NCBI GenBank assembly: GCA_039796155.1
Contig: JBDKKJ010000002.1
Location: forward strand, 31,365-95,364
DNA from: Candidatus Parcubacteria bacterium
GTDB lineage: Bacteria; Patescibacteriota; Minisyncoccia; Phycocordibacterales; UBA6065
Direction: 5' to 3'
Length of the DNA: 64,000 nt
A model generated the notes under the pieces. The model had not been told where the DNA came from. It ran no database searches and saw nothing but the letters and a program-made list of their open reading frames with translations. The translations under genes were made by a program, and so were the position numbers. Within the stretch, counting starts at the first letter, position 1; every line of letters starts with the position of its first letter. Positions 1-32,021 of the stretch are shown one piece after another.

Positions 1-1
1 A

Positions 2-559
2 TATGAGTATGAATCATGCTATCACCCTCTTGAACTTGTAGAAGTAGAGGTTATTGGAGTAATACCAAGGAGCGGTACTGGAACAATAGGTACTGTTGAC
101 CCTATAGCAACAGGAGGTGGAACAAATACGGGGGGCACAGCGACTGTACAAAAGACCCTTGACCTTGTGGTTTCATCAACGAATTCTCCTACTCTTACTT
201 CATCAGTTCCGTTTGCGTATGACCTACAGGTCGTAGCAAATCACTCAACTTCAAGCCTTTCTGTCACACACACCTTCAAGAAAAGTGGCCAGAGAATTCT
301 CACGGGCAACATCTTTTCAAGCCTTAGTGTTACAACTCGACGCGGTTCTGGTTCATCGGCGGTTAACTCTGTCCCAGCAAGTTCACAGAGTCTGACGGTC
401 AACAGCATATCAGTGAGCGCTACCGAAAAATTCACTTTTAGTTTTGCTGGTCAGAAAAAACCAGGTATCCCAACGGGTACCTATATAATCGAAAGCGTAC
501 TCTCTGACAGGTTTGGAAATATACTCCAGACCAAGACGACGGACTTCGTAGTACAATAA
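2..559 (+). CDS. Thr/Ser-rich extracellular/surface protein, C-terminal part (5' end outside window)
   Basis: Frame 2 is open from nt 2 with no stop before the listed ORF 167..559; Ser/Thr-rich low-complexity sequence; lies upstream of T4SS-like genes. Confidence 0.35.
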   Translation, partial: YEYESCYHPLELVEVEVIGVIPRSGTGTIGTVDPIATGGGTNTGGTATVQKTLDLVVSSTNSPTLTSSVPFAYDLQVVANHSTSSLSVTHTFKKSGQRILTGNIFSSLSVTTRRGSGSSAVNSVPASSQSLTVNSISVSATEKFTFSFAGQKKPGIPTGTYIIESVLSDRFGNILQTKTTDFVVQ

Positions 560-565
560 ACCCAA

Positions 566-2944
566 ATGCGACGATTCTTCCTTAAACATAAAGCAGTAAT
601 CTCGACACTCTGTATTGTTGCAGTGCTCTTGATTGCGCCCCATTTTGCGCACGCTCTTGTAAATCCTTTTAGTTCTGTAGACATCATCACGTCTTTTGTC
701 ACTGGAGGTGTTGGGCTTCTCCTTGAAGTGCTCATACTTCCTTTGGCATCTGGAATGCTAGCGCTTGGAGGACTTCTTCTTGATGTGGCGATTAACTTTA
801 GCCTCCATACCGCATATATCTTTAGTCTTTCACCAGCAATTAATCTTGGTTGGACTATTGTACGAGACCTCTGCAACATCTTCTTTATATTCGTACTTAT
901 ATATATCAGCCTTGGAACAATTGTCCGCGGTACAAGTTTTGGAACAAAAGATTTACTTACAAAAGTAATTATTGCTGCTCTTGTGATCAATTTTAGTCTT
1001 TTTATTACGAAAGCAGTTGTTGACGTAAGCAACGTGTTCGGACTTTGGCTTTACGGTGGAATCAAAAACTCCCTTGTAGCAAACTCATTAGATGCAAGTA
1101 AGCCGGCGAGTTTGAGCGATCTAATTAGTACACGTTTAGGGGTAATACAGTTCCTTAGACTCGGAACAAACGCAACTGAGAACGCTAGTGCGGCCAAGAC
1201 AGTATCTGAGGGACTTACAAGTCCAAGTCAAAGCTTTGTTGCACGAATATTACGTCTCGCAGTTATCCTTATTGCCACATATATATTCTTTTATTGTGCG
1301 ATTATATTCATCGCACGAAGTGTTACGCTTCTTTTCCTTATGGTATTTTCGCCAATAGGATTTATGGGTGATGTGTTGCCGCAGTTGAAAGAATACGCAA
1401 ACGACTGGAGAAAAGAACTTACGAGCGCAGCCATGTTTCCTGTTGCGTTCTTACTAATGCTTTACATCGCACTACAGTTTATTAATAGCCTAGGAGTTCT
1501 TGTTAAAGATCAAATAACAGATCAGTCAGTTATCGGAGGAGTAAGTATTTCAATATACTTCCAGTATTTTATTGTAATCATGCTTCTTAAGGCCTGCCTT
1601 GAAGTTGCAAAAGACAACGAAGGAAAAATGGGGAAGGCGATGGGCGGATTGGCGGATGGTCTTGGAAAGTTGGCTGTGAGGGCCGGAGTGGCAGCTGCTT
1701 CTGGCGGTTCGGCACTTGCAATTCGAGCCGGCCTTGCGGCAGCGACCGCAAAAACAGGAGAGGGTTGGAAAGCAGCAAAAGATACCCTACCACCATCACC
1801 GCGATTTATTGAAAGCTTCAAAAAAGATGGGTTTGCAGCCGCGGGCAAAGATATATTTGACAGCACAGTAAAAGCGGCAAAGTCTGGTACTTGGGATGTG
1901 CGTAATGCAAAAATACCCGGTATAGGTAAAGCAACTCTTGGTAGTACTCTTGGTAACCTCGTGGGCGTAGAATTAAATGCCCAGACTGCAAAGGAACTCA
2001 AAGAAACTCGTGGAGAGTGGGCTGAGGAGCGAAAAGTTGAAGAAAAAAATCAGGAAATTCTTGCACAGATTCGAGACATCGAAGATGCAAAGGCATCATA
2101 TGAACGATCAAGAAAGACAACTGTCGATAAAAAATTGCTTGACGACAAAGTTAAGGACGCAAAGGGTAAAATGTCTGACGCGTCTTCAAGTCTATCAAAC
2201 AAGCAACTTGAAAAACTTGGAAAAAGTACGCTTTCCAACGAACACTTTATTCAGTCTATTTCGCAAAACCAGGCAGAGCATCTTGCTGAAAAAACTGAAG
2301 CATCAGATGATGATAAGGCAGAAGTTTGGAAATATAGACTTTCAGACGTTAGTGAAGCACTTAAACCTGGAGGTACTGGTGATGTTAGCAAGGCAATAAA
2401 AAATCATTCAGATAAAGAACTTGAGAATTTGCCACCAGAGGCTCTTAAAGACCTTAAATTTGTTAGCGCTTCAAACATGAATTATGAGAAGTTTAATAAT
2501 CTCATGAAGAGCACAAAGATAAGTAACGCAACGAAGGCGGAAATGAAAAAGCTACGATATCAAGCGTTCTACGAGGCGATAAAATCAAGAAAATACGACG
2601 ATGTTGAGAAGGAACTTAAAGATTTGGAGGCTCCTGAAATCGCAAAGATGGACTGGATCAAGAAAGAAGATGACGGTACGGAATTCAGAGCGCTTGCGAA
2701 CCCTGAGGTACTTTACCGTCTAGACACAAAAACACTTGGTAAGATGTATGAGGAACTCAGCACAAGCCAACTTGCTGATGTCAGACTAGCGATAGAAGCG
2801 GTCGTTACTCGCACTCCAAAACCAGGAAATTCTGACAAGTTTACCCACACTGCTAGCGCTTCAATTACGAACACGGCAATGCGTAAACGTCTTGAAAAAA
2901 CCTCTGAATGGCTACTTACAAATAACATAGGTAAAGAATTCTAA
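566..2944 (+). CDS. TrbL/VirB6-like polytopic membrane protein with long charged coiled-coil C-terminal tail
   Basis: N-terminal signal/TM plus at least 6 hydrophobic helices in the first ~330 aa, followed by ~450 aa of K/E/D-rich low-complexity tail; adjacent to VirB3/VirB4 homologues. Confidence 0.5.
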   Translation: MRRFFLKHKAVISTLCIVAVLLIAPHFAHALVNPFSSVDIITSFVTGGVGLLLEVLILPLASGMLALGGLLLDVAINFSLHTAYIFSLSPAINLGWTIVRDLCNIFFIFVLIYISLGTIVRGTSFGTKDLLTKVIIAALVINFSLFITKAVVDVSNVFGLWLYGGIKNSLVANSLDASKPASLSDLISTRLGVIQFLRLGTNATENASAAKTVSEGLTSPSQSFVARILRLAVILIATYIFFYCAIIFIARSVTLLFLMVFSPIGFMGDVLPQLKEYANDWRKELTSAAMFPVAFLLMLYIALQFINSLGVLVKDQITDQSVIGGVSISIYFQYFIVIMLLKACLEVAKDNEGKMGKAMGGLADGLGKLAVRAGVAAASGGSALAIRAGLAAATAKTGEGWKAAKDTLPPSPRFIESFKKDGFAAAGKDIFDSTVKAAKSGTWDVRNAKIPGIGKATLGSTLGNLVGVELNAQTAKELKETRGEWAEERKVEEKNQEILAQIRDIEDAKASYERSRKTTVDKKLLDDKVKDAKGKMSDASSSLSNKQLEKLGKSTLSNEHFIQSISQNQAEHLAEKTEASDDDKAEVWKYRLSDVSEALKPGGTGDVSKAIKNHSDKELENLPPEALKDLKFVSASNMNYEKFNNLMKSTKISNATKAEMKKLRYQAFYEAIKSRKYDDVEKELKDLEAPEIAKMDWIKKEDDGTEFRALANPEVLYRLDTKTLGKMYEELSTSQLADVRLAIEAVVTRTPKPGNSDKFTHTASASITNTAMRKRLEKTSEWLLTNNIGKEF

Positions 2945-2948
2945 ATTT

Positions 2949-3581
2949 ATGGACTTTTCAAAAGATCAAAAAAAGGAGGCCTATAAAAATCTCAACGAGA
3001 GACAAAAAGAGTTTGTTTCTTCTGAGAGTGTTAGTCAGACCCTTCAAGCGATAGGGGAAAGACAAGGATTTCTTCTTGATAAAACAGGAATTCTAAGTGA
3101 CGTAGTCTTTGCTGCACTTCTGGGGCTGGTAAAGATTACTGAAATAAACTCTGTGATCGAAAGCAAGCTTGGGATTTCTGGACAGAAACAACAGGATCTA
3201 CTTAATGATATAAATGAAAAGATATTTTTGCCATTTAGACAGGTTCTCGTAGAAGGTACTACCCCCACTGAAGAAAAAATTGAGCGCGTAAGCACTAGCA
3301 CCGAACCCAATCGCGAAGACATCCTCGCTGAAATTGAAAACCCAACACCAACCGTTCACCCTATATCTATAGCCGATCACACCATTGCAGGACCGGCACA
3401 ACCTCTTGAAATCACCCCTCCTGCAACTGAAACAAAAGAGGCTGTTGCTCAAGCCTTTATTGGAAGCAAACTCACTGAAACAGTAAACCTACCTTCACAA
3501 AAAGCAGTCGTAACCCTCAAGGCGCCTGAAGTAAAGCCTAAAAACTACGGCCCAGACCCTTATAGAGAGTCGATTATGTAA
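2949..3581 (+). CDS. hypothetical protein within T4SS-like cluster
   Basis: 210-aa ORF tightly packed (5 bp gap) after the VirB6-like gene; no recognisable motif. Confidence 0.4.
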   Translation: MDFSKDQKKEAYKNLNERQKEFVSSESVSQTLQAIGERQGFLLDKTGILSDVVFAALLGLVKITEINSVIESKLGISGQKQQDLLNDINEKIFLPFRQVLVEGTTPTEEKIERVSTSTEPNREDILAEIENPTPTVHPISIADHTIAGPAQPLEITPPATETKEAVAQAFIGSKLTETVNLPSQKAVVTLKAPEVKPKNYGPDPYRESIM

Positions 3582-3623
3582 GAAAACACAGACCTCACTG
3601 TATTACAATGAGGTCTGTGTTTT

Positions 3624-4076
3624 TTGAGGTATAATAATTCTATGAGATTTCAAGTTCCTCAATTCATCGAAGTCGAAGACAAAATATTCGGTCCACTCAC
3701 TCTCAAACAATTCATATATCTCCTTGGTGGGGCAGGACTTTCCTTTATTCTTTACAGTTTTATAGGTAACCTCTATATCAGTATCTTTTTTATACTTCCC
3801 GTAATTGGCTTTAGTCTGACATTGGCGTTCTACAAAATAAATAACAAGCCATTTATTAATGTCGTCGAGGCAGCCTTCAATTATTACGTTGGAAACAAGC
3901 TCTATATTTGGAAACACGTTGAAAAACCGATCATAGCCAAAGAACAGGCCGTAGAATCTGCACCAGACTTCTATGTACCAAAGCTTTCTGACTCAAAACT
4001 AAAAGATCTTACCTGGTCACTGGACATTAAGCAGAGTCAAAATCCTGCACAACGAGCAGGCAAACAAACGTTCTAG
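3624..4076 (+). CDS. VirB3/PrgI-like small membrane protein
   Basis: 150 aa with two adjacent TM helices (QFIYLLGGAGLSFILYSF...) directly upstream of VirB4, as in Gram-positive-type T4SS. Confidence 0.4.
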   Translation: MRYNNSMRFQVPQFIEVEDKIFGPLTLKQFIYLLGGAGLSFILYSFIGNLYISIFFILPVIGFSLTLAFYKINNKPFINVVEAAFNYYVGNKLYIWKHVEKPIIAKEQAVESAPDFYVPKLSDSKLKDLTWSLDIKQSQNPAQRAGKQTF

Positions 4077-4097
4077 TATACTTATCTTATAAATCCC

Positions 4098-4733
4098 ATG
4101 GCAGTCAACGCAAAAACAACACAAGAGTTCGTTCCCATCAAAGAAATCCGACAAGGAATGATTATCCTTAAGGATGATTCTATGCGCGCTATTGTCATGG
4201 CTTCTTCTCTCAACTTTGCACTCAAGTCTGCAGATGAGCAGCAGTCGATTATCATGCAGTTTCAGAACTTCCTCAACTCTCTCGATTTTACAGTACAAAT
4301 ATTTATTCAATCACGAAAACTCGACATCAGGCCGTATATAGCCCTCTTGGAAGGGAGACTCAAGGAACAAATGAGTGATCTTCTTAAAATCCAGACCCGT
4401 GAATACATTGCCTTCATAAAAAACTTTACTGAAAACTCAAACATTATGACAAAGTCATTCTTTGTTGTGGTTCCATACTCACCGGCAGCACTTACCGCCG
4501 GGGGAGTGACAGATGTCTTTAGTAAAAAGAAAACCTCAGCAGAAAGTGCTGAGAAGAAGATTGCTGACTTTGAAGAACACCGAAGCCAGCTCGAACAGCG
4601 CGTGAGCGTTGTTACACAAGGACTTGTCCGCTGTGGTATTCGTACCGTTGAATTAGGAACAGAAGAGATTGTTGAACTCTTCTACAAGATCTTCAATCCC
4701 GGAGATACTGAAAAGCCAATACCGCTAACATAA
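4098..4733 (+). CDS. VirB4-family ATPase, N-terminal domain fragment (separate ORF)
   Basis: Start 'EFVPIKEIRQGMIILKDDSMRAIVMASSLNFALKSADEQ' matches the conserved N-terminus of conjugative VirB4/TraE/PrgJ ATPases; stop TAA at 4731-4733 lies 4 nt before the ATG of the ATPase-domain ORF in a different frame. Confidence 0.55.
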   Translation: MAVNAKTTQEFVPIKEIRQGMIILKDDSMRAIVMASSLNFALKSADEQQSIIMQFQNFLNSLDFTVQIFIQSRKLDIRPYIALLEGRLKEQMSDLLKIQTREYIAFIKNFTENSNIMTKSFFVVVPYSPAALTAGGVTDVFSKKKTSAESAEKKIADFEEHRSQLEQRVSVVTQGLVRCGIRTVELGTEEIVELFYKIFNPGDTEKPIPLT

Positions 4734-4737
4734 AACT

Positions 4738-6543
4738 ATGGGAATATTTGATTTTTTAAAAAAGAAGCAGAATCGGGTAAACATTGCACCAATCCTCCCA
4801 CAGGAAATCTATGAGGCTGGTGTTTTGGAACTCAAAGACGTTATTGCCCCGTCTGCTTTAAAGGTAAGTCCTCGTGAACTCTCGCTCGGAGACAAAATTG
4901 TCCGTTCTTTCTTTGTTATTTCATATCCACGATTCCTTGGAGAGAGCTGGTTTGCACCAATCATCAACCTCGATAAAGTTTTTAACATTTCTATATTCGT
5001 ACATCCGGTAGAAACAGCAAAAGTTCTCCGTCAGTTTCAGAAAAAAGTAGCTGAAGTACAAAGCCAGATCTCGATCAGAGAGCAGAAGGGACTTGTACGT
5101 GATCCAATGCTTGATACCGCATACCAAGACCTTGAAAACCTCCGCGACCAGCTTCAGCAAGCACAGGAAAAGCTTTTTGATGTGGGTGTCTATATCTCGA
5201 TATACGGAGAAAACGAGGCAGAGCTTGATAAAACAGAGTCTGAAATCAAATCAATCCTCGAATCAAAGCTCGTGTATGTAAAGCCAGCACTCTTCCAACA
5301 AGAGCAGGGCTATAAGAGTAACCTTCCAACAGCAACCGATGAATTGATGGTTCATTCAAAGCTGAATTCATCTCCACTTTCATCGCTCTTTCCATTTATT
5401 TCATTCGACCTCACGTCTGACAAGGGAATTCTGTACGGTATAAACCGACACAACTCATCACTGGTTTTGTTCGATCGTTTCTCTCTTGAAAACTACAACT
5501 CTATTACCTTTGCAAAATCTGGTGCTGGAAAATCATATACAGTGAAGCTTGAAATTCTTCGAACACTTATGTTCGATACCGACGTGATTGTTATTGACCC
5601 TGAAAGGGAATATGAAAACCTCGCCGAGGCAACGGGCGGTAAATACTTTAATATTTCTCTCAACTCTGAACACCATATCAACCCTTTTGACCTGCCAATT
5701 CCTCGTGAAGACGAATCTGGTGCTGATGTACTCCGTTCAAACATCATAAACCTCGTAGGTCTGTTCCGTATTATGATGGGGGGCCTCACTCCTGAGGAGG
5801 ATGCCATTGTTGACCGTGCTATTTCAGAGACCTATGCCCTCAAAGACATTACTCCTGACTCTGATTTCCGTGGAACTGAGCCACCACTCCTGTCTGATTT
5901 CGAACTCGTGCTTGCTGGTATGGAAGGTGGGGAATCCCTCGTCCAAAGACTGACAAAATACACCAAAGGTACCTGGTCTGGCTTTATCAACCGTCCTACC
6001 AACGTAGATATCGGTGCAAAATTCATTGTATTTTCACTGCGTGACATGGAAGAAGAGCTCAAGCCGGTGGCTATGTATATCGTCATGCGCTATATCCAGA
6101 CAGCGGTGATGAAAAACCTCAAAAAGCGCCTCCTGGTCATCGATGAGGCGTGGTGGATGATGAAATCTGAGGATACCGCATCATTCCTCCTGGGTTTGGC
6201 TAAACGAGGCCGTAAACACTACCTCGGTATTGCAACAATCACTCAGGATGTGGATGACTTCCTCAAATCACCCTATGGTCTCCCCATTATTACCAACTCA
6301 TCTATACAGGTTCTCCTTAAACAGTCACCGTCATCTATAGACAAGCTTCAGCAAGTATTCAATCTTACTGATGAAGAAAAATATCTCTTGCTCGAATCTG
6401 ATGTAGGGGAGGGTATATTCTTTGTAGGGCTCAAACATGTGGCTATAAAAATCATTGCTTCATATACCGAAGACCAAATCATCACCTCAGACCCATCGCA
6501 AATCCTGGCAATAAAAGAAGCAAAGAGAAATAATCAGCAGTAA
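4738..6543 (+). CDS. virB4: VirB4/TrbE-family type IV secretion ATPase (ATPase domain)
   Basis: Walker A 'FAKSGAGKSYT', Walker B 'LLVIDEAWWMM', 601 aa; conserved VirB4 C-terminal architecture. Confidence 0.75.
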   Translation: MGIFDFLKKKQNRVNIAPILPQEIYEAGVLELKDVIAPSALKVSPRELSLGDKIVRSFFVISYPRFLGESWFAPIINLDKVFNISIFVHPVETAKVLRQFQKKVAEVQSQISIREQKGLVRDPMLDTAYQDLENLRDQLQQAQEKLFDVGVYISIYGENEAELDKTESEIKSILESKLVYVKPALFQQEQGYKSNLPTATDELMVHSKLNSSPLSSLFPFISFDLTSDKGILYGINRHNSSLVLFDRFSLENYNSITFAKSGAGKSYTVKLEILRTLMFDTDVIVIDPEREYENLAEATGGKYFNISLNSEHHINPFDLPIPREDESGADVLRSNIINLVGLFRIMMGGLTPEEDAIVDRAISETYALKDITPDSDFRGTEPPLLSDFELVLAGMEGGESLVQRLTKYTKGTWSGFINRPTNVDIGAKFIVFSLRDMEEELKPVAMYIVMRYIQTAVMKNLKKRLLVIDEAWWMMKSEDTASFLLGLAKRGRKHYLGIATITQDVDDFLKSPYGLPIITNSSIQVLLKQSPSSIDKLQQVFNLTDEEKYLLLESDVGEGIFFVGLKHVAIKIIASYTEDQIITSDPSQILAIKEAKRNNQQ

Positions 6544-6573
6544 AACAAAAGCCACCTCTACACAGGTGGCTTT

Positions 6574-7593
6574 GTGCTCTTGTGGTACAATAATTACATG
6601 TTTCGCGCGTTAAAAAGCACATTATTCTCTCTCTTTATATTTTCTTCTTTCTTTCTCTCTGTACATGCCCAGAGCGTGCCTGGTATCAGTGATCCTGTAA
6701 CATTCCGAATGGTTCCTGAGTATCCAAACCCAAATCAAAGAGTGACACTCACCGCCCAAAGCTTTAATACAGACCTTAATAAGGCAATTTTTAAATGGTT
6801 TGTTAACGATAGGGTGTACAAAGAGGGTGTTGGCATTAAAGAAATAGACATAAACAGTGGTAACGCAGGATCTTTTACAGCAGTACGTGTTCAGATTAAA
6901 ACTCCAGATTTTGGAACTATTGAAAATGCATTCTCGTTTAGACCAGCTGAGGTTACGTTGTTATATGAGGCAGATACGTACACTCCTCCGTTTTATAAAG
7001 TAAAAGCACTCCACTCTTTTAATGGTGCTTTTAAAGTAACGGCCATTCCTGAATTTTTTGATGTGAGTGGCAAAAGAATAAATCCAAAAGATCTTATTTA
7101 TACCTGGAAGAAAAACGGCGAGGTAGTAGGAGCGGCTTCAGGTTTTGGAAAGGATTCGTATATCGCTTCTCAAACAAGCTACCTTCGCGATGGGGAAGAG
7201 GTAAGTGTTGAGGTGTCCTCACCACGTGAAAGCCTTGCAGGTTCAGCTTTTATAACCATAAAGCCGAGTGTGCCGGAAATCATATTCTATGAAAACAGTC
7301 CACTCTATGGGGTTGTATACGAGAAGGCTCTTCAGAGTACTTATAGACTTATAGACGAAGAATTTACTCTTCGCGCAGAACCGTTGAGCATGTCTACAGA
7401 CAATCCACTTTCAGGACTCCTTTCACTTACTTGGGACATGAACGGATCAACCGTCTCAAATTTTAGTAATAAAAATGAGATTACTCTTCGTAAAACAGGT
7501 ACAACTGGTGGGCGATCAAGTGTGAGTCTTGTGGTTCAAAACAAACGAAAGGTACTTCAGGGAGCGGAGGCGAGCATAATGATACTTCAATGA
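6574..7593 (+). CDS. secreted protein with tandem beta-rich repeat domains
   Basis: Cleavable signal peptide (…FFLSVHA/QS); internally repeated ~90-aa segments; within T4SS-like cluster. Confidence 0.45.
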   Translation: MLLWYNNYMFRALKSTLFSLFIFSSFFLSVHAQSVPGISDPVTFRMVPEYPNPNQRVTLTAQSFNTDLNKAIFKWFVNDRVYKEGVGIKEIDINSGNAGSFTAVRVQIKTPDFGTIENAFSFRPAEVTLLYEADTYTPPFYKVKALHSFNGAFKVTAIPEFFDVSGKRINPKDLIYTWKKNGEVVGAASGFGKDSYIASQTSYLRDGEEVSVEVSSPRESLAGSAFITIKPSVPEIIFYENSPLYGVVYEKALQSTYRLIDEEFTLRAEPLSMSTDNPLSGLLSLTWDMNGSTVSNFSNKNEITLRKTGTTGGRSSVSLVVQNKRKVLQGAEASIMILQ

Positions 7594-8753
7594 TTAAAAG
7601 AAACTCACAAACCATAATAAAGAAAATATCAGTAGGAGTAGTTTTTTCTGTCTTTATTTTCCTTAATATTTCTTTTACACAAATTGCATTAGCACAGACT
7701 GATCCTCAAAAAGACCCTCGACAGTATGTTGCGCTTACAACCATCCCTGGTTTTACCATCGGTTGTAAACCATCAGCAGATGGTAGTACAACGGCCTGTC
7801 CCTCAATAAACCCAGTTGATAAAATAGTAAATATTTACGGTGTAGCCATTGGTATAGCAGCCATTCTTGCGGTTGTTAGGATTATCATAGCAGGACTCAA
7901 ATACGCAACCACAGAAGCAATAGACGGTAAGTCAGATGCTAAAGACACTTGGCAGGGGGCCTTCTACGGCCTTGGTCTGCTCCTTGTTTCATTTCTTCTG
8001 CTTCGTACTATTAATATTGATTTAGTGAACGTAAATCTGCACCTTGGCACACCATTTGTTGACAACACTGAAGGCGCTAGAGTTGCATCAAGACTCCTCA
8101 CTTCAGCCGCAAGAAAGATAGAAGAGAATGCAGAAAAAATTACTACCGCAATTTCAACACAAAGAGCTGTAATAGAGACTGCTGAACAAAATCTTGAAGC
8201 AGCTAAAACCTCTGGTGACCCAGAAAAGATTGCTGTGGCGCAGAATACCTTGAACACAGCACAAGCAACAGCGGTAACAGTTGCCAAGTCGGTAATTAAA
8301 GACACAAATAGCCTTGTGGATTCGTCAATTACGGCCGCTGAATCATTTATACCTACAGGTGTAGAGAAGTCTTTAAAGGGTGAGTTTTCAACAAAAGTTA
8401 ATCAAATAGATACCGCACTGGATAACGCTATTGCAACTTTAGAGAAACAAAAAAGCGCGGCAACAACCGACACAGAGAAACGAGTAATTGATATAGCGAT
8501 CAAGAATGTGGCTGATAAAAAAATAATGACAGATGTTGGATTAGACGCCGCATGGAGAACCTCAAGTAACATAAAATACGCTTCGACTCAGACTGATTCA
8601 TTGGCTGCATTTCAGCAATCTCTCATTAATCAAAGAAACTCTACGCTTGCTAGAGTTAGCGACAAAAACTCTGTGGACGCAATCAACTTCCAGAGAAATA
8701 TGAACACCCTTATTTTAAAGATTGGAAACGTTATTAACTCTCCGACAAAATAA
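7590..8753 (+). CDS. secreted/membrane protein with VirB2-like two-helix hydrophobic core plus coiled-coil tail (putative pilin-like)
   Basis: Signal peptide, then two hydrophobic helices separated by a short polar loop (IVNIYGVAIGIAAILAVVRIIIAGL / FYGLGLLLVSFLLL), then ~230 aa helical tail; overlaps previous gene by 4 nt. Confidence 0.35.
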   Translation: MIKRNSQTIIKKISVGVVFSVFIFLNISFTQIALAQTDPQKDPRQYVALTTIPGFTIGCKPSADGSTTACPSINPVDKIVNIYGVAIGIAAILAVVRIIIAGLKYATTEAIDGKSDAKDTWQGAFYGLGLLLVSFLLLRTINIDLVNVNLHLGTPFVDNTEGARVASRLLTSAARKIEENAEKITTAISTQRAVIETAEQNLEAAKTSGDPEKIAVAQNTLNTAQATAVTVAKSVIKDTNSLVDSSITAAESFIPTGVEKSLKGEFSTKVNQIDTALDNAIATLEKQKSAATTDTEKRVIDIAIKNVADKKIMTDVGLDAAWRTSSNIKYASTQTDSLAAFQQSLINQRNSTLARVSDKNSVDAINFQRNMNTLILKIGNVINSPTK

Positions 8754-8754
8754 G

Positions 8755-9987
8755 ATGTCAAAAAAATCCTTCATATTTTTAATACTCATCATTCTAATCA
8801 TTTTTGGTTTGATTGGTTGGTATTTATACACAACAAAGACAGGTCCACAGGGTACAACTCCAGGTACCACGAATAATGATGATCTTTTTCCTTTTGGTCC
8901 CGGTGGAACAAATAATCAAAACAATGGAACCTCAACATCTGGTGGGGGAGATGGGTTTGTGGATCTCTCAGTAAACGGAGAAGTACGTCTTCCACGACTT
9001 CGCCAGATATCTTTTGTTCCTACAGCAGGTGCAACAGCTTCTTCAACCGCATCTTCAACAATTATTCGTTACATGGAGCGTGCAACGGGACATATTTATG
9101 AAACAGATAGTGAAAATCCAAAGGTGACAAAAATCTCTACTATAACTATTCCAAAAGTGCACGAAGCTCTCTTCACCGCAGACTCAACAAAACTTCTTGT
9201 GCGTTACCTTAACGATTCAACAGGTGCAGTGAGAACTTTCTACGCAAAGATAGCAACAACCACACGCCCAGAACAAGCTATAGAAGGTCTCTTTCTTACA
9301 GATGACATTAAAGATGTAACGGTTTTTGGTAACAAAATCTTCTATCTTTTATGGAGCGATACAAATGAACAGGGGATAGTGTCTGATATGGATGGAAGTT
9401 ACAAAACAGTGGTATTTAATTCGTCATTCGGTGAGTGGACCGCAAACTGGACTTCACAAAATATTATTAACCTATCTTCAAAGCCAAGCAGCGCCGCTCG
9501 TGGTGCTTCGTACATTCTTAACCCGGGAACAGGTAACTATACAAAAATGGTTGGAGACCTTAACGGTCTTGAAACCGTGGCAAATAATGACGGTTCTCTC
9601 ATACTTGTTTCGAACAGCACGACAAATTACTACAGCGCCTCGATTCTTGAAACCAAAACAGGAAAGACCCAAAGACTTGGTCTTTCAACACTCGCTGGAA
9701 AATGTGTATGGAGTAAGAAAGATATAACCACTATTTACTGCGCCGTACCTAAAGAAGCTAACCGAGGATCATATCCTGACGATTGGTATAAAGGTAAAAT
9801 GTCATTCGACGACAGTCTTTGGAAAATAAATGCGGTCAGTGGTGAAACAACCGAAATTCTTACCCCGGAACTCAGCACAGGAACCTCAATGGATATAATG
9901 AAGCTTAGTCTCGACCAGAAGGAGAATGTGATCCTCTTTACGAACAAGAAGGATATGACGACATGGAGATACAATCTCGTAGAATAA
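8755..9987 (+). CDS. membrane-anchored protein with Gly/Thr/Asn-rich linker and beta-rich ectodomain
   Basis: N-terminal TM (FIFLILIILIIFGLIGWYLY) then low-complexity GT/N-rich stretch; ATG at 8755 (MSKKS) preferred over 8722 to avoid overlap. Confidence 0.45.
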   Translation: MSKKSFIFLILIILIIFGLIGWYLYTTKTGPQGTTPGTTNNDDLFPFGPGGTNNQNNGTSTSGGGDGFVDLSVNGEVRLPRLRQISFVPTAGATASSTASSTIIRYMERATGHIYETDSENPKVTKISTITIPKVHEALFTADSTKLLVRYLNDSTGAVRTFYAKIATTTRPEQAIEGLFLTDDIKDVTVFGNKIFYLLWSDTNEQGIVSDMDGSYKTVVFNSSFGEWTANWTSQNIINLSSKPSSAARGASYILNPGTGNYTKMVGDLNGLETVANNDGSLILVSNSTTNYYSASILETKTGKTQRLGLSTLAGKCVWSKKDITTIYCAVPKEANRGSYPDDWYKGKMSFDDSLWKINAVSGETTEILTPELSTGTSMDIMKLSLDQKENVILFTNKKDMTTWRYNLVE

Positions 9988-10097: not shown

Positions 10098-10838
10098 TTA
10101 ATTACGAGCCTTTAACTCTGTCTCTCGTGCCATCTGCTTTCGTATATAGAGCTCCTGTCCAATCGTAAAGAGGTTTGAGGTAATCCAGTAGAGCGCGAGT
10201 GCTGAAGCAATGTTGTATGAAATGAAGAAGATCATGACAGGGAAGATATACTTCATTTGTATCTGCATATTTCGCGCCAAATCGTCCTGGAAGCTTCCAC
10301 CTTCGGTCTTTTTTGCAGTTATAGGCACTGAGAACTTTATTTGATAATACTGCGACGCTGCGGCGAGTACAGCAAGAATCACACTCTTTTGAGTTACATC
10401 AACAAGACCCAAGAAAATAGTGTTTATATGAGCCGGAACCCCTACAAATGAATAGAGGATATCTGTATGTATTGTAGAAAATCCCGCTGAGTAGAATATT
10501 TTATAAAGAGCAAAAATAATAGGGAGCTGAATAAGAAGAAGAAAAATGCTCGAGAAAGGGTTTACCTGCTTCTCTTTATACAACTTCATCGTCGCAACAG
10601 CTTGCTGTTGTTTATCGTCCTTATACTTCTCTTTAATAGCCTTAAGTTCAGGTTCAACAAGCTTCATCATAGCCTGTGTGCGAACAGCCTTCTTTGAAAC
10701 AGGGAAGAGTACGAGCTTTACAAGCACTGTAAAGAGGATGATAAGGAAACCAGCATCAAGAAACGGCAAACTGTCAGCCAATAGAATAAGGCCGTTATAA
10801 AGAGGATCGTAAATAAATGTTGTGTATAGATAACCCAT
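10098..10838 (-). CDS. yidC: membrane protein insertase YidC (short form)
   Basis: 246 aa, 5 TM; conserved YidC/Oxa1 core; canonical position downstream of rnpA. Confidence 0.8.
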   Translation of the reverse strand: MGYLYTTFIYDPLYNGLILLADSLPFLDAGFLIILFTVLVKLVLFPVSKKAVRTQAMMKLVEPELKAIKEKYKDDKQQQAVATMKLYKEKQVNPFSSIFLLLIQLPIIFALYKIFYSAGFSTIHTDILYSFVGVPAHINTIFLGLVDVTQKSVILAVLAAASQYYQIKFSVPITAKKTEGGSFQDDLARNMQIQMKYIFPVMIFFISYNIASALALYWITSNLFTIGQELYIRKQMARETELKARN

Positions 10839-10878
10839 ATATATGTATTAGAGACTCAATAGTAGCTTACTTAGTAGT

Positions 10879-11208
10879 CTAGCTCAACAACCCAGCCTTT
10901 TTAAAAACAATCTCGACTTCTTTTGAAATATCAGTAAACGGTGCTTTTATGAATTCCTTTTTTGGCATAAGCATGGCGTAAACCGGAAAAGAGAGGTTTC
11001 CTTTAACCCTCTCAAGAGCTGAATAAGCTCTACGTCGAATCCTGTTTCTGTCTACAGCAAGCGGGACAACCTTCTTTGAAACAGCCACAGCGAACTTAGA
11101 TTTTGAGGCAGGGGTATAGCGCATAGAAAAAAGCGTCCCAAAGACGCTTTTTCCTTGAGAAAGTGCTTCTATATCGCTAACTGTAAGCCTTTCTACCTTT
11201 TTGAGCAT
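10879..11208 (-). CDS. rnpA: ribonuclease P protein component
   Basis: 109-aa basic protein between rpmH and yidC; RnpA-like sequence. Confidence 0.7.
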   Translation of the reverse strand: MLKKVERLTVSDIEALSQGKSVFGTLFSMRYTPASKSKFAVAVSKKVVPLAVDRNRIRRRAYSALERVKGNLSFPVYAMLMPKKEFIKAPFTDISKEVEIVFKKAGLLS

Positions 11209-11209
11209 T

Positions 11210-11347
11210 TTAAACTTTGAGCAACTTCTTACGACCCTTATGGCGTCGGCGGGTGATAACCGCTCTTCCTGTAGGGGTAGATTTTCGTGCGAGGAATCCG
11301 TGTGCTCGTGCTCGCTTTCTGTTTTTTGTTTTGTATACGATTGCCAT
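11210..11347 (-). CDS. rpmH: 50S ribosomal protein L34
   Basis: Manual translation of minus strand: [45 protein letters not shown] (45 aa), classic L34; not in ORF track because <60 aa. Confidence 0.85.
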
Positions 11348-11462
11348 AAAATCAGTTATTAACAACTTGTTCACATATTATTAACACATTTAGGCCTTGG
11401 TTTCAAGTACTACTATTCCCATAAGCCATTATACTTACGTTACTTCGGAAAATAATACTTAT

Positions 11463-12809
11463 ATGGATAATAAAAAAATATGGGAGAGTGTGCTTGGAAG
11501 CATCGAACTTCAGGTATCAAAAGCTAACTTTACGATGTGGTTTAAAGACACCTATATCCATAAACAGGATGATGGGGTGGTGTATGTTTCTGTGCCGAGT
11601 GTTTTTGCTAAAGAATGGCTTTCAAGTAAGTTTCATAAAACAATCCTCAAGTTCTTGAGAGATGAAGGTAGTGATATCCGATCTCTTGAATACGTCATAT
11701 CAAAGTCTTCTGAACGAAAAGAGGTTCAAGAAGAGCCTCGAAAACACGTAACACCCGCACATGAGCTTCCATTACAGGAATTCTATGTAAGCAAGGATGA
11801 TAACCTTAACCCTAAGTACACGTTTGATACCTTTGTTGTTGGTCCATTTAACGAACTCGCTCATGCAGCAGCTCAAGCAGTTATAAAGAACCCAGGAGTC
11901 GCATATAACCCGCTTTACCTTTACGGAGGAACGGGGCGTGGAAAAACTCACCTTATGCAGGCAGTAGGGAATCACATAAAAGCCAACAACCCTGCAAAAA
12001 AGGTATTCTATGTTACCTCTGAACGCTTTGCGGTTGACTACATGAACTCAATTCAGCTTGGTAAAGCTAATCAGTTTAAGGAAAAGTATCGTAAGTATGA
12101 TGTTTTGATCATGGATGACGTTCAATTCTTCTCAAGCAAGGAAAAATCACAGGAAGAATTCTTCCATCTCTTCAACACCCTTAAAGAAAACAACAGACAA
12201 CTCATTTGTTCTTCAGACCAACACCCGAATCACATGCCGGATATAGAAGACCGTATAAAATCACGCTTTGGCGCGGGAATGATTGTTGATGTATCTGCAC
12301 CTGACTACGAATCACGCTTTATAATTCTTAAAACAAAGCTCGAACGCCAGAATATTACGCTTCCACAAGAGCTTTTGGAGTTTCTTGCACAGTCAGTGGA
12401 AGGAAATATTCGAGAACTTGAGGGAATTGTGAACTCAATTGCTATGCAGACGCAGGTTCGAGGTAGGGAACTTAATATTATTGAGATTAAAAATCTCATA
12501 AAGAACAGTGCAAAGCCAAAGAAAACAATTTCTATTAAAGAAGTAGTTAAAATTGTGTCTGATTTCTACAACATTGAGGAAAATCACATATACGAGAAAA
12601 CTCGTAAGAAAGAAGTGGTGAAGCCACGTCAGGTAATTATGTATATTCTTCGCGAGGATATGAATATTTCATATCCGTCTATTGGTGAGAAGCTTGGAGG
12701 CCGTGATCACACGACAGTTATTCATTCTTGTGAAAAAATCAAAGAAGATATAAAGTCGAATCAAACACTACTTCAGGAGGTTAATCATATTCGTTCTTTA
12801 ATCACCTAA
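11463..12809 (+). CDS. dnaA: chromosomal replication initiator protein DnaA
   Basis: N-terminus MDNKKIWESVLGSIELQ… (ATG 11463 preferred over 11397), Walker A GGTGRGKTHL, C-terminal DNA-binding domain. Confidence 0.9.
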   Translation: MDNKKIWESVLGSIELQVSKANFTMWFKDTYIHKQDDGVVYVSVPSVFAKEWLSSKFHKTILKFLRDEGSDIRSLEYVISKSSERKEVQEEPRKHVTPAHELPLQEFYVSKDDNLNPKYTFDTFVVGPFNELAHAAAQAVIKNPGVAYNPLYLYGGTGRGKTHLMQAVGNHIKANNPAKKVFYVTSERFAVDYMNSIQLGKANQFKEKYRKYDVLIMDDVQFFSSKEKSQEEFFHLFNTLKENNRQLICSSDQHPNHMPDIEDRIKSRFGAGMIVDVSAPDYESRFIILKTKLERQNITLPQELLEFLAQSVEGNIRELEGIVNSIAMQTQVRGRELNIIEIKNLIKNSAKPKKTISIKEVVKIVSDFYNIEENHIYEKTRKKEVVKPRQVIMYILREDMNISYPSIGEKLGGRDHTTVIHSCEKIKEDIKSNQTLLQEVNHIRSLIT

Positions 12810-13037
12810 CAGCCTGTGAATGGGGTGGGGATAGTAAGTGAGAAACTGGGGATAAAAAGAGGGTTTTAAAGAAAAGATAAAAAGTTATATTTCTGGGCAG
12901 GTGGATATCCCCAGAATAAAACAAAATAAAATCTAGAATATGTATATAACTAGCCTTATAAAAAGTTATACACATATACACAGTGATAATAGTAATAATA
13001 GTCTTCTTAATAGAATATAAGAATATATACTGGGGAT
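12810..13037. promoter_or_regulatory. candidate oriC: AT-rich dnaA-dnaN intergenic region with DnaA-box-like 9-mers
   Basis: ~75% AT; near-consensus DnaA boxes (tggggataa 12846, ggtggatat ~12917, ttatacaca 12984, tggggatat 13030) in the classic dnaA-dnaN position. Confidence 0.5.
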
Positions 13038-14138
13038 ATGAAAATAGAATGCATTAAAGAGAAACTAATAGAAGGAATTGCAAAGGCAGACCGCCTTACA
13101 GGTAAGAATCTTTCTTTACCTATTCTTTCTTGTATCAATCTTTCTGCAAAAGGTAATTCTTTGATTATACGAGCAACAAACCTTGATTGTGGTATAGAGA
13201 TCAAGATTGCAGCTAAGGTAGACGTAGAAGGCGAAATAGCCCTTCATGGAGGGGTTATGAGTTCACTCCTTGCCGGTCTTCCAAAGGAAAAAAACATTAC
13301 CCTTGAATCAAAGGAGGGAAATGTTGTTATTTCTACATCTGCCAACACAACACTCATTAAAACATTTCCACCGGATGATTTTCCAACTATTCCAAAGCTT
13401 GAAACACAAAGAACAGTTGATATAAGCCCAAAACTTCTTGTTAAAGGTTTTAAATCGGTGTTCTATAGCGCTTCACAATCAACAGTAAAGCCAGAGCTTT
13501 CAAGTGTGTATGTGTTTAAAGAAGACTCAGACCTTGTGTTCGTGTCAACAGACTCATTCAGACTTGCTGAGAAAAGGATAAAAATTAAGGACACTCTCGA
13601 TTTCCCGTCAGTTATAATCCCAGCCAAGAATGTTGCTGATATTATTCGAACTCTTGAAAACACCACTGATGATGTAAAGGTTTTATTTGATAAAAACCAA
13701 ATTGCTTTTGAGGCAAAGGATATTTACCTCATGTCTCGCGTAATTGACGCTACGTTCCCAGACTACAAACAAATCATTCCAAAAACATTCATCACAGAGG
13801 TGGTTGTATTAAAGCAGGATTTTGTTGATTCTCTTAAAACCTCACATGTTTTCTCTGATAAGTTTAATCAGGTTAATGTAAAAGCGCTTCCTTCGAAGAA
13901 ATCATTTACCATTTCTACAAAAAATAGTGATGTTGGTGAATATACCAACGCTATTGATTCAAGTGTGACAGGGCAGGATGTTGAAATAAATTTTAATCAC
14001 AAATACATTGCAGACAGCTTCCAATCTATTGATTCTGATAGTATTTCTATTTCAATCAGTGGAGCAAACAAACCTCTTGTTATGAAAGGTGTATCTGATA
14101 AATCATTCACATACCTTGTGATGCCAATGAATCGTTAA
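13038..14138 (+). CDS. dnaN: DNA polymerase III beta sliding clamp
   Basis: 366 aa, DnaN three-domain pattern; immediately follows dnaA/oriC. Confidence 0.85.
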   Translation: MKIECIKEKLIEGIAKADRLTGKNLSLPILSCINLSAKGNSLIIRATNLDCGIEIKIAAKVDVEGEIALHGGVMSSLLAGLPKEKNITLESKEGNVVISTSANTTLIKTFPPDDFPTIPKLETQRTVDISPKLLVKGFKSVFYSASQSTVKPELSSVYVFKEDSDLVFVSTDSFRLAEKRIKIKDTLDFPSVIIPAKNVADIIRTLENTTDDVKVLFDKNQIAFEAKDIYLMSRVIDATFPDYKQIIPKTFITEVVVLKQDFVDSLKTSHVFSDKFNQVNVKALPSKKSFTISTKNSDVGEYTNAIDSSVTGQDVEINFNHKYIADSFQSIDSDSISISISGANKPLVMKGVSDKSFTYLVMPMNR

Positions 14139-22252: not shown

Positions 22253-23926
22253 TTAATCGAGGTCTATTACGCGTCCAAGTTCATCTATGGTTGTAATACC
22301 ATTGAGTACTTTTAGTATACCGTCTTGAGTCATTGTGAGAATGCCTTGGGCTGCGGCAATCTTGGCGACGTCCTTTTCATTGGTAGAGAACTCAATCGCT
22401 TTGTCTATTTCTTCGGTAGTGAGAATACCTTCGTAAATGCCGAGGCGGCCTTTATAGCCGGTCATATTACAAGCCGCACAGCCCACTGGTTTGTAAACAG
22501 TATCTCGTTTTGTGGGCATTTCGGCAGGATCTACAATTGTGGCAAGAACCTTGTCAACAATCTCTTTATCTTTACCTGCGAGAGCTTCTTCCTTTTTACA
22601 TGCAGCACAAAGTTTTCGAACAAGACGCTGTGCGAGAGTGATATTGATAGCAGATGACATCACACGAGGGTTTACTCCAAGGTCAACCAAGCGGGGGAAT
22701 GAACCAGCGGCAGAATTGGTGTGAAGTGTTGAGAACACAAGGTGACCTGTAAGTGCAGAGTCGATGGCAATCTGTGCGGTTTCATTGTCTCGGATTTCTC
22801 CCACCATGATGATGTCGGGATCCTGACGAAGTGCCGAGCGGAGTCCAAGAGCGAATGTGTAGCCTTTATCAACGTTGGTCTGCGTCTGAGTAATGCCAGG
22901 GAGGTGGTATTCAATAGGGTCTTCAATGGTAATAATCTTCACATCAGGGGTGTGAATCTTTCGAAGAAACGCATACAGGGTGGTTGTTTTTCCAGATCCT
23001 GTCGGTCCTGTGGTGAGGATCATGCCGTTTGGCTTTGTCACCTGTTCAAGAAGAATACCAAGAAGCTTCTTTGGAATACCAAGGTCTTCGAGGGGCACTT
23101 GAATTGATTTTGGATTAAGAAGTCGGAGCACGATTGATTCACTGTATGCACCGGGGAGCATAGAGGTACGAATTTCGATTTCATCTTCGCCGACTTTTAC
23201 GCTAAAGCGGCCGTCCTGTGCTTCTGACTTTACGTTAAGCTTGAGACCTGAAAGGAGCTTGATACGAGAGAGAATGAGGTTATATGTTTCAAGATCAAAA
23301 GACATAATATCGGTAAGTACTCCGTCGAGGCGGAAGCGAAGGCGAGTATACGCTTCTTCTGGTTCGATGTGGACGTCTGACGCCTTGGTTGCGAGAGCGC
23401 CAGAAAGCACAATTTCAAGAATTTTAGAAATACGAAAACCCTTTTTAAGTTTAAGAATCTCTGTCATCGAAGCCTTTACGTCTTCAACAGTATGGATTTT
23501 ACCAATAAATTCTTGGATATCTTCGTTTGAAACATCGAGAGCGCCAGCTTTAGTAACAGTAGAGAAGGTAAGGTCAGAATAGCGACTCCATGCTTTTTCA
23601 AGACTTGTAAGAGATGCTACAGCGATGGTAATCTCATAACCTTTATTTTTTATAATATCGAGAGCAGCAATAGTTTTTTCATTTACAGGTGAAACCACGG
23701 CAATTTTTGCGCGTTTGCCGATAAGTGAGAAAGGGGCAAGAAGATTGGCACGTGCGTCCGCCTCAGGGATAAGTCGAAGAGCATCCATGTTAATAGGCAC
23801 GGGTCCGAGGTCTACATATTCAAGCTCATGACGTGAGGCGAGGATTTGCGCTACATCCTCCTGTTCCCGGCGTTTGAATTCGTCGAGTTTCTTGTCCTGT
23901 TTTTCTTCATCAAAAGTGACTGTCAT
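22253..23926 (-). CDS. type II/IV secretion system ATPase, PilB/GspE family
   Basis: Walker A TGPTGSGKTTTL, Asp box, His box, tetracysteine CxxC…CxxC, N-terminal GspE_N-like domain; 557 aa. Confidence 0.8.
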   Translation of the reverse strand: MTVTFDEEKQDKKLDEFKRREQEDVAQILASRHELEYVDLGPVPINMDALRLIPEADARANLLAPFSLIGKRAKIAVVSPVNEKTIAALDIIKNKGYEITIAVASLTSLEKAWSRYSDLTFSTVTKAGALDVSNEDIQEFIGKIHTVEDVKASMTEILKLKKGFRISKILEIVLSGALATKASDVHIEPEEAYTRLRFRLDGVLTDIMSFDLETYNLILSRIKLLSGLKLNVKSEAQDGRFSVKVGEDEIEIRTSMLPGAYSESIVLRLLNPKSIQVPLEDLGIPKKLLGILLEQVTKPNGMILTTGPTGSGKTTTLYAFLRKIHTPDVKIITIEDPIEYHLPGITQTQTNVDKGYTFALGLRSALRQDPDIIMVGEIRDNETAQIAIDSALTGHLVFSTLHTNSAAGSFPRLVDLGVNPRVMSSAINITLAQRLVRKLCAACKKEEALAGKDKEIVDKVLATIVDPAEMPTKRDTVYKPVGCAACNMTGYKGRLGIYEGILTTEEIDKAIEFSTNEKDVAKIAAAQGILTMTQDGILKVLNGITTIDELGRVIDLD

Positions 23927-29179: not shown

Positions 29180-29229
29180 GCCTTGATAATAAAACCTTAA
29201 TACCTATAAAGGCCTAAAAATAAGGCTAT

Positions 29230-30854: not shown

Positions 30855-31511
30855 ATGAATAACATATTCACAATGAGTCAGGGCGCCGGCCAAAAACTTG
30901 AATTCGCGTTCGAACGCAACGACGGAAACACGTCGGACTTGGACTGGCTGTCGACGGGTGAAAACCTCAAGTCGGTCATCCTGCTCGCGCGAGGCGAGGC
31001 GGAATTAACCGTTAAGGCCAAACCTGTCCCAACTCCTGAATCTAAGGTTGCGAGCGACACCATCATCCGTGTCGACCGCTCGGTCAAGCCAACCTATCCC
31101 GACTGGGTGAAGGAAGTCCTTCATCCTGATCTGGAAAAGTCCGGCCCGACCGAATATAGCATCGCCACAATCGACCAATGGCTCCACGAAGGCCAGAAGA
31201 ATGGCAAATGGACCACGGGCAACGTGATCTATGCAAACCTGAAGGACAACGATGAGGTAGCCCTCAAAACCTGTCTCGGACTGCGCGACCTTGAAGAAAT
31301 CCAAAAGAAAGGCATCGCCTTTTTCCGGAAATACTTCAAGGGCAAAGCAGTATTTGGATGGGCTGGTGCTGTGCGGAACCGTCGCGACGACCTGAGTGCC
31401 CCGTATCTCTGCGAGCGCGGTGACGAGGTTGTCCTCGGCTGGAGCTGGGCTGACGGCAGTTGGAGCGGCAACGTTCCAGCTCTCCGCCACGCAAGTAGTC
31501 CTCAAGCCTAA
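30855..31511 (+). CDS. DGR target protein with C-terminal variable region (C-type-lectin-like VR)
   Basis: 218 aa; last ~42 codons (VRNRRDDLSAPYLCERGDEVVLGWSWADGSWSGNVPALRHA) correspond to the VR matched by the downstream TR; markedly GC-rich relative to surroundings. Confidence 0.7.
   Translation: MNNIFTMSQGAGQKLEFAFERNDGNTSDLDWLSTGENLKSVILLARGEAELTVKAKPVPTPESKVASDTIIRVDRSVKPTYPDWVKEVLHPDLEKSGPTEYSIATIDQWLHEGQKNGKWTTGNVIYANLKDNDEVALKTCLGLRDLEEIQKKGIAFFRKYFKGKAVFGWAGAVRNRRDDLSAPYLCERGDEVVLGWSWADGSWSGNVPALRHASSPQA
31370..31494 (+). repeat. DGR variable region (VR)
   Basis: 125-bp near-repeat of 31892-32016; 18 mismatches, every one at a position where the TR has adenine. Confidence 0.8.
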
Positions 31512-31544
31512 GACACTGAGATTTAGCTCTTTGTACTTAGTTCT

Positions 31545-31585
31545 TAGCCCGGCGTCGCGCAAGCGATGTCCGGGCTAATTTTTTA
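31545..31585 (+). terminator. GC-rich hairpin with GCAA tetraloop plus T-run immediately downstream of VR (terminator / DGR-associated hairpin)
   Basis: tagcccggcgtcgc-GCAA-gcgatgtccgggcta followed by ttttttatt. Confidence 0.55.
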
Positions 31586-32016: not shown

Positions 32017-32021
32017 CTCGC

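Follow-up and report, generated by a model that had tools for sequence, protein, structure and literature searches.

A probable Paceibacteria form of the Patescibacteria type IV secretion system beside dnaA

Known Patescibacteria systems and the translocon core

The type IV secretion systems (T4SS) of Patescibacteria are the closest described systems to the gene cluster analysed here, which occupies positions 1-9987 of a stretch of 64,000 nucleotides from a Candidatus Parcubacteria bacterium (contig JBDKKJ010000002.1; the whole 64-kb stretch is called the window hereafter). In the survey of Quinonero-Coronel et al. 2025 (PMC12102498), VirB4 was found in 2,417 of 3,035 Patescibacteria genomes, and 2,425 Patescibacteria VirB4 proteins fall into one clade nested in the MPF-FATA class. 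TrsD is the commonest partner, PrgI, VirB6 and VirB2-like pilins occur near virB4, too, and relaxases were present in just 103 of the 3,035 genomes. In Paceibacteria, virB4 lies close to dnaA, dnaN, rnpA, rpmH and ksgA, and in the class ABY1 the T4SS genes adjoin comF, recG and radA. A 2025 review restates the main points of this survey. By transposon sequencing (Tn-seq), Wang et al. 2023 (PMC10633639) found a homologous cluster and its pilins to be essential for epibiotic growth of Southlakia epibionticum (Saccharibacteria); that cluster had neither a recognisable coupling protein nor a recognisable relaxase.

We consider the cluster in the window to be the Paceibacteria form of this chromosomal, vertically inherited T4SS, derived from monoderm conjugation machinery of the MPF-FATA class (probability about 0.78). 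Its proteins were scored with the curated cut-offs of Pfam and NCBIfam. The reading as a translocator is based on VirB4 and PrgI, which pass these cut-offs, and on VirB6, TrsD and the pilin, which score near the thresholds; VirB6 and the pilin have support at family level, too. The first-pass annotation of this DNA had listed a VirB6-like protein, a VirB3/PrgI-like protein, VirB4 and three secreted or membrane proteins. All of these are where it had placed them, but the genes at 2949-3581 and 4098-4733 had been overlooked. Each element of that annotation's finding and interpretation is already published (PMC12102498, PMC10633639). The cluster contains the following genes:

1-559, + strand: C-terminal 185 amino acids of a 792-amino-acid secreted protein; the gene begins upstream of the window and is identical to 2359-4737 of the upstream locus L081
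566-2944, + strand: extended VirB6/TrbL-like polytopic membrane protein, 792 amino acids (near-threshold Pfam TrbL/VirB6 match PF04610, hydropathy, gene position)
2949-3581, + strand: soluble protein of 210 amino acids, family without a name (alignment of 23 orthologues)
3624/3642-4076, + strand: PrgI/VirB3-like small membrane protein with two membrane helices, 150/144 amino acids (Pfam PrgI)
4098-4733, + strand: TrsD-like protein, equivalent of the VirB4 N-terminal domain in a separate gene, 211 amino acids (NCBIfam)
4738-6543, + strand: VirB4 ATPase, 601 amino acids, C-terminal two thirds of a canonical VirB4 (NCBIfam, motifs)
6598-7593, + strand: secreted protein with three tandem repeats (signal peptide; one W-x-x-N-G motif per repeat)
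7590-8753, + strand: VirB2-like pilin, 387 amino acids, with a signal peptide, a two-helix hydrophobic hairpin (amino acids 75-140) and a helical C-terminal domain of 230 amino acids
8755-9987, + strand: membrane-anchored extracellular beta-propeller (AlphaFold2, mean pLDDT 85.5)

The VirB4 protein matches the NCBIfam model conju_CD1110 (NF045971) with 363 bits (cut-off 325; model positions 185-733). Both its Walker A motif (AKSGAGKS at amino acid 259, 5512-5535) and its Walker B motif (LLVIDE at amino acid 465, 6130-6147) are intact, and tblastn with PrgJ of the enterococcal plasmid pCF10 detects it with E=4e-36. By sequence it is of the monoderm CD1110/FATA type. Its membership in the Patescibacteria clade is indicated indirectly, by the best 80 genomic matches all coming from Patescibacteria. 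The TrsD-like protein encoded in front of it matches the NCBIfam models VirB4_plasma (E=1.6e-11) and TrsD (E=3.5e-5, below the curated subfamily cut-off), aligns to positions 2-119 of the CD1110 model and has a precomputed PF26593 (TraC-like) assignment. The two genes lie in different frames, 4 nt apart, and are separate in all 77 loci that cover the TrsD gene, so the split is ancestral and not a frameshift. Hence the annotation of VirB4 was correct as far as the ATPase is concerned, but the protein is encoded by two genes and the one for the N-terminal domain had been missed.

The PrgI/VirB3-like protein, also proposed earlier, reached 38.6 bits with PF12666 (cut-off 27) and was found in 77 loci. 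Its start at 3642 was taken from the gene call in L081. The VirB6-like protein is a borderline case, with E=1.2e-5 and 25.7 bits against a cut-off of 25.9 over model positions 3-207 of 215. By hydropathy it has one signal-like and 5-6 membrane segments, followed by the K/E-rich tail of about 450 amino acids noted before, which measures 452 amino acids (residues 341-792) and consists of 36% K, E, D and R in its final 322. The 55 orthologues measure 602-1195 amino acids, as the tail, K/E-rich here, is poorly conserved and varies. PF04610 was matched at E<=1e-3 by 5 of the 55 and is assigned to 4 of 19 database homologues; the family profile gave nothing meaningful against the PDB. VirB6 of Agrobacterium has its N-terminus outside, five membrane helices and its C-terminus inside. 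If the topology of the protein in the window follows this pattern, the tail would be cytoplasmic, as the loop charges suggest.

Conservation, genomic position and conjugation functions

A scan of one genome per species yielded at least 568 stretches with VirB4 relatives, the best 80 of which (loci L001-L080) were compared with the window. All 80 are metagenome-assembled genomes of Patescibacteria, assigned to Paceibacterota, Parcubacteria, Taylor-, Zambryski- or Campbellbacteria, and their VirB4 proteins are 79-95% identical to the one in the window. The gene order is kept wherever the contig is long enough, and in about 70 of 80 species-level Paceibacteria genomes; it runs from the 298-amino-acid protein, the large secreted protein, VirB6, the small protein, PrgI, TrsD and VirB4 to the three-repeat protein, the pilin and the propeller, followed by yidC (-), rnpA (-), dnaA, dnaN and the gene for PBP1A (-). 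In the closest relative, ksgA is the next recognisable gene upstream. This conserved order across about 70 genomes speaks for vertical inheritance.

The median identity to the window protein in the same genomes is 82% for VirB4, 65% for TrsD, 61% for DnaA, 57% for PrgI, 50% for both DnaN and YidC, 37% for the pilin, 33% for the three-repeat protein, 32% for the propeller protein and 28% for VirB6, with a slight bias in the comparison as the loci were ranked by VirB4 similarity. Judged by these values, the VirB4 ATPase is plainly more constrained than the replication initiator DnaA, and the exported parts evolve fast.

The nine open reading frames (ORFs) in 1-9987 are all intact, lie on the + strand with intergenic gaps of -4 to 60 nt and form one tightly packed operon that is closed by a terminator. 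The module had been called minimal, which does not apply. The ORF 1-559 is open from base 2 and thus runs past the left edge of the window. In the upstream DNA of the same genome, obtained as locus L081, it turned out to be the C-terminus of the 792-amino-acid secreted protein, and its gene is preceded by one for a membrane-anchored protein of 298 amino acids. The cluster therefore extends beyond the window edge and has no fewer than 11 genes. Within the operon, a hairpin directly behind virB4 and the extended -10-like element TGGTACAAT (6583-6591), 7 nt ahead of the ATG of the three-repeat gene, could uncouple the ATPase genes from the genes for the exported components in their expression.

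As already annotated, the cluster adjoins the yidC-rnpA-rpmH-dnaA region, and yidC, rnpA, dnaA and dnaN are its neighbours in the related loci, too. The signals and neighbouring genes are:

6548-6573, no strand assigned: hairpin with a 10-bp stem, immediately past the virB4 stop codon
10027-10061, no strand assigned: bidirectional terminator-like hairpin between the operon end and the convergent yidC, with the inverted repeat AAAAAATCCGTCAAAG...CTTGACGGATTTTTT and T-runs on either side, as read from the sequence
10098-10838, - strand: yidC (translation)
10879-11208, - strand: rnpA (translation)
11210-11347, - strand: rpmH (translation)
within the 10098-14138 context, + strand: dnaA, then dnaN (translation)

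The cumulative GC skew has its minimum at about 8-10 kb. DnaA boxes are not enriched (22 observed, 15.8 expected); the origin is placed here by gene content and GC skew only. Lying on the + strand left of dnaA, the operon is transcribed toward the presumed origin and would consequently run head-on to the leftward replication fork. Nearly all related loci have it in this orientation, too, which is not covered by the gene-dosage idea in the literature.

Neither a relaxase, VirD4 and VirB11 nor a flanking integrase had been noticed in the first-pass annotation, and our searches agree with this. By tblastn, the coupling proteins PcfC (pCF10) and TrwB (R388) and the relaxases PcfG (pCF10) and TrwC (R388) detected nothing at E<=0.05 in the 64-kb window, although very divergent proteins could escape such a search. 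Within 10 kb of virB4 in the 80 related loci, queries for coupling proteins, relaxases and VirB11 gave nothing at E<=1e-3, and there was no integrase in the same range. The VirB11 query had its only match in the window in a PilB-type ATPase (22253-23926, - strand, 557 amino acids, T2SSE and MshEN domains). As this ATPase shows, the T4SS is accompanied by a type IV pilus or competence pilus system.

The 19 kb next to the cluster in the window are free of recombinases. The sole one, a large serine recombinase at 29230-30579 on the - strand, is about 19 kb away and does not flank the cluster. Together with a Schlafen/AlbA_2 and HATPase_c_4 protein (27740-29179) it may form a small mobile island (27740-30579) unrelated to the T4SS. 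Both genes adjoin a diversity-generating retroelement (30855-33417; GC content up to 0.487). This element consists of a target ORF (30855-31511) with the variable repeat 31359-31494, a template repeat (31881-32016) that is 83% identical to it, all mismatches being A in the template, and a reverse transcriptase (32362-33417). A further gene in the window (55325-57244) encodes a membrane-anchored protein of 639 amino acids with a DUF11 repeat, likely a surface protein.

These data bear on the idea that the cluster is what is left of an integrated conjugative element after decay and the loss of relaxase, coupling protein and integrase. Such an origin could be suspected from the occurrence of this VirB4 family on integrative elements and plasmids of Firmicutes and from the serine recombinase elsewhere in the window. 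The recombinase, however, is 19 kb distant and sits next to the retroelement, the ORFs are intact and tightly packed, the order and position are identical in about 70 species with VirB4 conserved above DnaA, and the GC content of 0.415 compared with 0.428 in the rest of the window is native. On synteny, conservation and composition we reject this explanation and assign it hardly any probability. The interpretation as a chromosomal machine rather than a conjugative element, put forward before, is borne out by the fixed position and the native composition, and the literature concurs.

The pilin-like protein and the other exported proteins

The pilin-like protein matches Pfam T4SS_pilin (PF18895) with its amino acids 80-137 at E=1.7e-4 and 22 bits (cut-off 26.6). 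Among its orthologues, 55 of 65 match this family, with a best E value of 4.7e-10, and one matches TrbC/VirB2. The AlphaFold2 model (mean pLDDT 66) contains the signal helix, then two long helices (75-112 and 117-140) that form the hairpin and, behind a disordered linker, a six-helix domain (167-383, pLDDT 70-93). Foldseek with this model found generic helical bundles only. A VirB2-like two-helix core fused to a coiled coil had been predicted; the hairpin core is supported, but for the tail the model predicts a helical bundle.

With a hidden Markov model (HMM) of the core, we detected the core once per locus, always in the same place, in 64 loci and in proteins ranging from 106 to 555 amino acids. 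Compared to the closest species, whose VirB4 and DnaA are 95% and 86% identical to those in the window, the core shows 73% identity and the tail 14%. The 58 tails of at least 40 amino acids fall into 38 BLAST clusters, and the C-terminal tail is, by these sequence comparisons, hypervariable across species; a Pfam scan of the variable tails gave no match. In two families the helical tail is replaced by Cys-rich globular ones. The first (L016, L018, L037 and others) had no match in the PDB with its profile. The second (L022, L034, L074 and others; nine members) has an invariant H, D and H and gave weak PDB matches to Sonic hedgehog N-domains (E about 0.005). Sonic hedgehog N-domains have the LAS zinc-hydrolase fold. 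Its alignment contains what we take, from known LAS signatures, to be the zinc motif H-x-x-G-x-x-x-D ... H-x-H; this is not a significant match. The second family may represent a cell-wall hydrolase fused to the pilin module.

With the 112-amino-acid core as query, 6,607 relatives (E<=1e-3) were obtained from 1.84 billion representative proteins. Of the best 150, about four fifths exceed 250 amino acids and carry the core near the N-terminus, which shows that long-tailed pilin-like proteins are widespread and not peculiar to the window. At least 13 of these 150 hold 2-6 matched core stretches. Five relatives (P0190, P0191, P0192, P0196 and P0271) contain 3-6 tandem pilin cores in single proteins of 460-1046 amino acids, i.e. 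fused pilin arrays.

Further exported proteins are conserved beside the pilin. The 792-amino-acid secreted protein combines a conserved N-terminal domain that contains Cys with an F5/8 type C (galactose-binding-like) domain, the latter with 28.5 bits for Pfam F5_F8_type_C_2 (cut-off 27.8). In 54 related loci a homologue of this protein, and in 30 one of the 298-amino-acid protein, is encoded directly upstream of VirB6; the profiles of both families gave nothing meaningful against the PDB. A DUF4141 assignment for the upstream protein was dropped, as the match occurred in 1 of 46 homologues and was not reproduced in 10 others. The three-repeat protein was found in 74 loci and has the invariant residues W75, W178 and W287. 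It matches Pfam BiPBP_C weakly (E=2.5e-5), and its profile gave weak PDB matches to Hoc and an Ig domain (E about 0.01); the repeats are probably Ig-like. The model of the propeller protein comprises a membrane helix (amino acids 3-26), a disordered linker of 45 amino acids (29-73) and the propeller (82-407). Foldseek detected generic propellers only (TolB, WD40, prolyl oligopeptidase; E about 1e-9), and none of its 265 homologues is annotated. Thus the three secreted or membrane proteins listed before comprise one with a signal peptide (6598-7593), the pilin-like protein and one with an N-terminal membrane helix (8755-9987).

The small protein encoded at 2949-3581 has no signal peptide. In the alignment of 23 orthologues, the helical N-terminal domain is conserved and the C-terminal DPYRE is invariant, and an IENP motif and a Pro-rich linker are further features; one marginal hydrophobic window (1.73, threshold 1.6) lies inside the N-terminal domain. 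No match was found for it in Pfam, NCBIfam or the PDB. In L037 (11817-12224) and 9 other loci, the gene next after virB4 encodes a multi-pass membrane protein of 135 amino acids, which the window and its closest relatives lack.

This set of proteins could also be read as an organelle for adhesion only, in which VirB4 and VirB6 assemble a VirB2-like filament with a host-binding tail and nothing is translocated. A conserved pilin core with a hypervariable tail would fit such a filament, the lectin-like, probable Ig-like and propeller proteins suggest surface binding, and a 2026 preprint describes tubular structures, possibly T4SS pili, at a parasite-host interface. However, adhesion in Patescibacteria is already provided by type IV pili (PMC12102498), and the window contains a PilB-type ATPase. 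Furthermore, VirB6 and the strongly conserved ATPase indicate a translocon, and the resemblance of some orthologous tails to LAS-type peptidases suggests enzymatic action on the cell wall. We regard pure adhesion as quite improbable.

Only tentatively, we propose that the single VirB2-like protein is a modular, polymorphic surface protein, whose conserved hairpin would anchor or polymerise it and whose exchangeable C-terminal domain would set host specificity or attack the host wall. Separately, the DPYRE protein might be a dedicated adaptor or a first candidate substrate. The role proposed for arrays of divergent short pilins in Saccharibacteria would fall here to the pilin with its variable tail. 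The parts of PMC12102498 and PMC10633639 drawn on here contain no description of a single long-tailed hypervariable pilin, of the DPYRE protein, of conserved propeller and Ig-like partners or of the lectin-domain protein.

Possible function and comparison with known systems

We favour a contact-dependent translocator at the interface between epibiont and host. By analogy with S. epibionticum, the T4SS is probably needed for growth on a host rather than for conjugation. In such a machine, PrgI/VirB3 would tether the TrsD/VirB4 ATPase at the membrane beside VirB6, and ATP hydrolysis by VirB4 would power the extraction of the pilin and its assembly into a conduit that spans the cell wall. Together with the pilin tail, the lectin, Ig-like and propeller proteins might hold or recognise the host cell surface, and the machine would then transfer macromolecules between epibiont and host.

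Alternatively, it might be that the cluster encodes a machine for DNA uptake like ComB of Helicobacter or Ced of Sulfolobales, taking in DNA of the host or the environment to obtain nucleotides or genes. The lack of detectable relaxases and coupling proteins in the window and the 80 loci would be in line with this, and so would the lack of nucleotide synthesis in Patescibacteria and the neighbourhood of the T4SS genes to comF, recG and radA in ABY1 (PMC12102498). The 2026 preprint ties VirB4 to macromolecule transfer in an RNA-feeding parasite. In addition, VirB4 weakly matches the model of the DNA importer CedB (E=4.9e-9, 35 bits, cut-off 700), but this match is confined to the P-loop region, and genes for ComEC, DprA and ComF are not adjacent here. 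In S. epibionticum, deletion of comEC abolished competence but not viability, and the T4SS was still essential (Wang et al. 2023 as cited in the 2025 review). Since viability was kept, DNA uptake through ComEC does not explain the requirement for the T4SS. We consider DNA uptake unlikely, though less so than pure adhesion.

Several observations weigh against the translocator. The VirB6-like and pilin proteins of the window score just under the Pfam gathering cut-offs, and the window revealed no component resembling VirB8 or VirB1. In hhalign comparisons the VirB6 family reached E values of about 0.03 with PrgH of pCF10 and the VirB6 protein TrwI of R388, and the pilin profile showed no significant similarity to TrwL (VirB2). 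The probabilities for all family profiles against these proteins and TrwJ (VirB5) were below 2%; as the templates were single sequences the test is weak, and we treat it as uninformative and not as negative. The absence of coupling protein and relaxase applies to the 64-kb window, i.e. a part of the source genome, and to 10 kb around virB4 in the 80 loci, and in most genomes surveyed homologues of the type IV coupling protein (T4CP) are located far from virB4 (PMC12102498). The functional evidence comes from Saccharimonadia, another class than Paceibacteria (PMC10633639).

Few machines have been shown to be indispensable for epibiotic life in this very large and mostly uncultivated part of bacterial diversity, and the Patescibacteria T4SS is one of them. 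The locus in the window adds no new kind of system to it; it is a clean and complete Paceibacteria example. Its testable parts are the variable-tail pilin, the DPYRE-tailed cytoplasmic protein and the propeller and Ig-like-repeat proteins conserved alongside the core, and they could guide experiments once a Paceibacteria-host pair becomes genetically tractable.

Compared to the MPF-FATA prototype, the Prg/Pcf system of pCF10 from Enterococcus faecalis, the cluster shows the same order of PrgH (VirB6), PrgI (VirB3) and PrgJ (VirB4), and the ATPases belong to the same NCBIfam equivalog CD1110. In contrast, pCF10 has a single-gene VirB4, the hydrolase PrgK, the VirB8-like PrgL, PcfC, PcfG and LPXTG adhesins, and it lacks a pilin; no homologue of PrgK, PrgL, PcfC or PcfG was detectable in the window or the 80 loci. 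Diderm VirB/D4 systems differ further, as the cluster yielded no Pfam or NCBIfam match to the outer-membrane core VirB7/9/10 and no match to VirB11. With extended VirB6 proteins, known e.g. from Rickettsiales (PMC12857230), the VirB6-like protein shares a polytopic core followed by a large hydrophilic C-terminal domain, but the tail sequences of the Rickettsiales proteins are unrelated to the tail here. The pilin resembles VirB2/TrbC pilins such as TrwL of R388 in its signal peptide, its two-helix hydrophobic hairpin with a short charged loop and its matches to Pfam T4SS_pilin. With 387 amino acids, however, it is three to four times as long as a typical VirB2, owing to the C-terminal domain of 230 amino acids.

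The closest agreement is with the T4SS of the Patescibacteria clade (PMC12102498; SEML1_0006-0019 of S. epibionticum, PMC10633639). The shared features are a monoderm-type VirB4 with a separate TrsD-like gene, PrgI/VirB3, probably VirB6 (borderline match here), a VirB2-like pilin, the lack of a relaxase or a nearby T4CP and the chromosomal position adjoining dnaA, dnaN, rnpA and rpmH. Unlike in the described systems, no lysozyme or peptidase gene follows virB4 in this locus. The systems of Saccharimonadia and Microgenomatia contain arrays of 2-11 short pilins, whereas in the window a single gene encodes a pilin whose C-terminal domain is long and variable.

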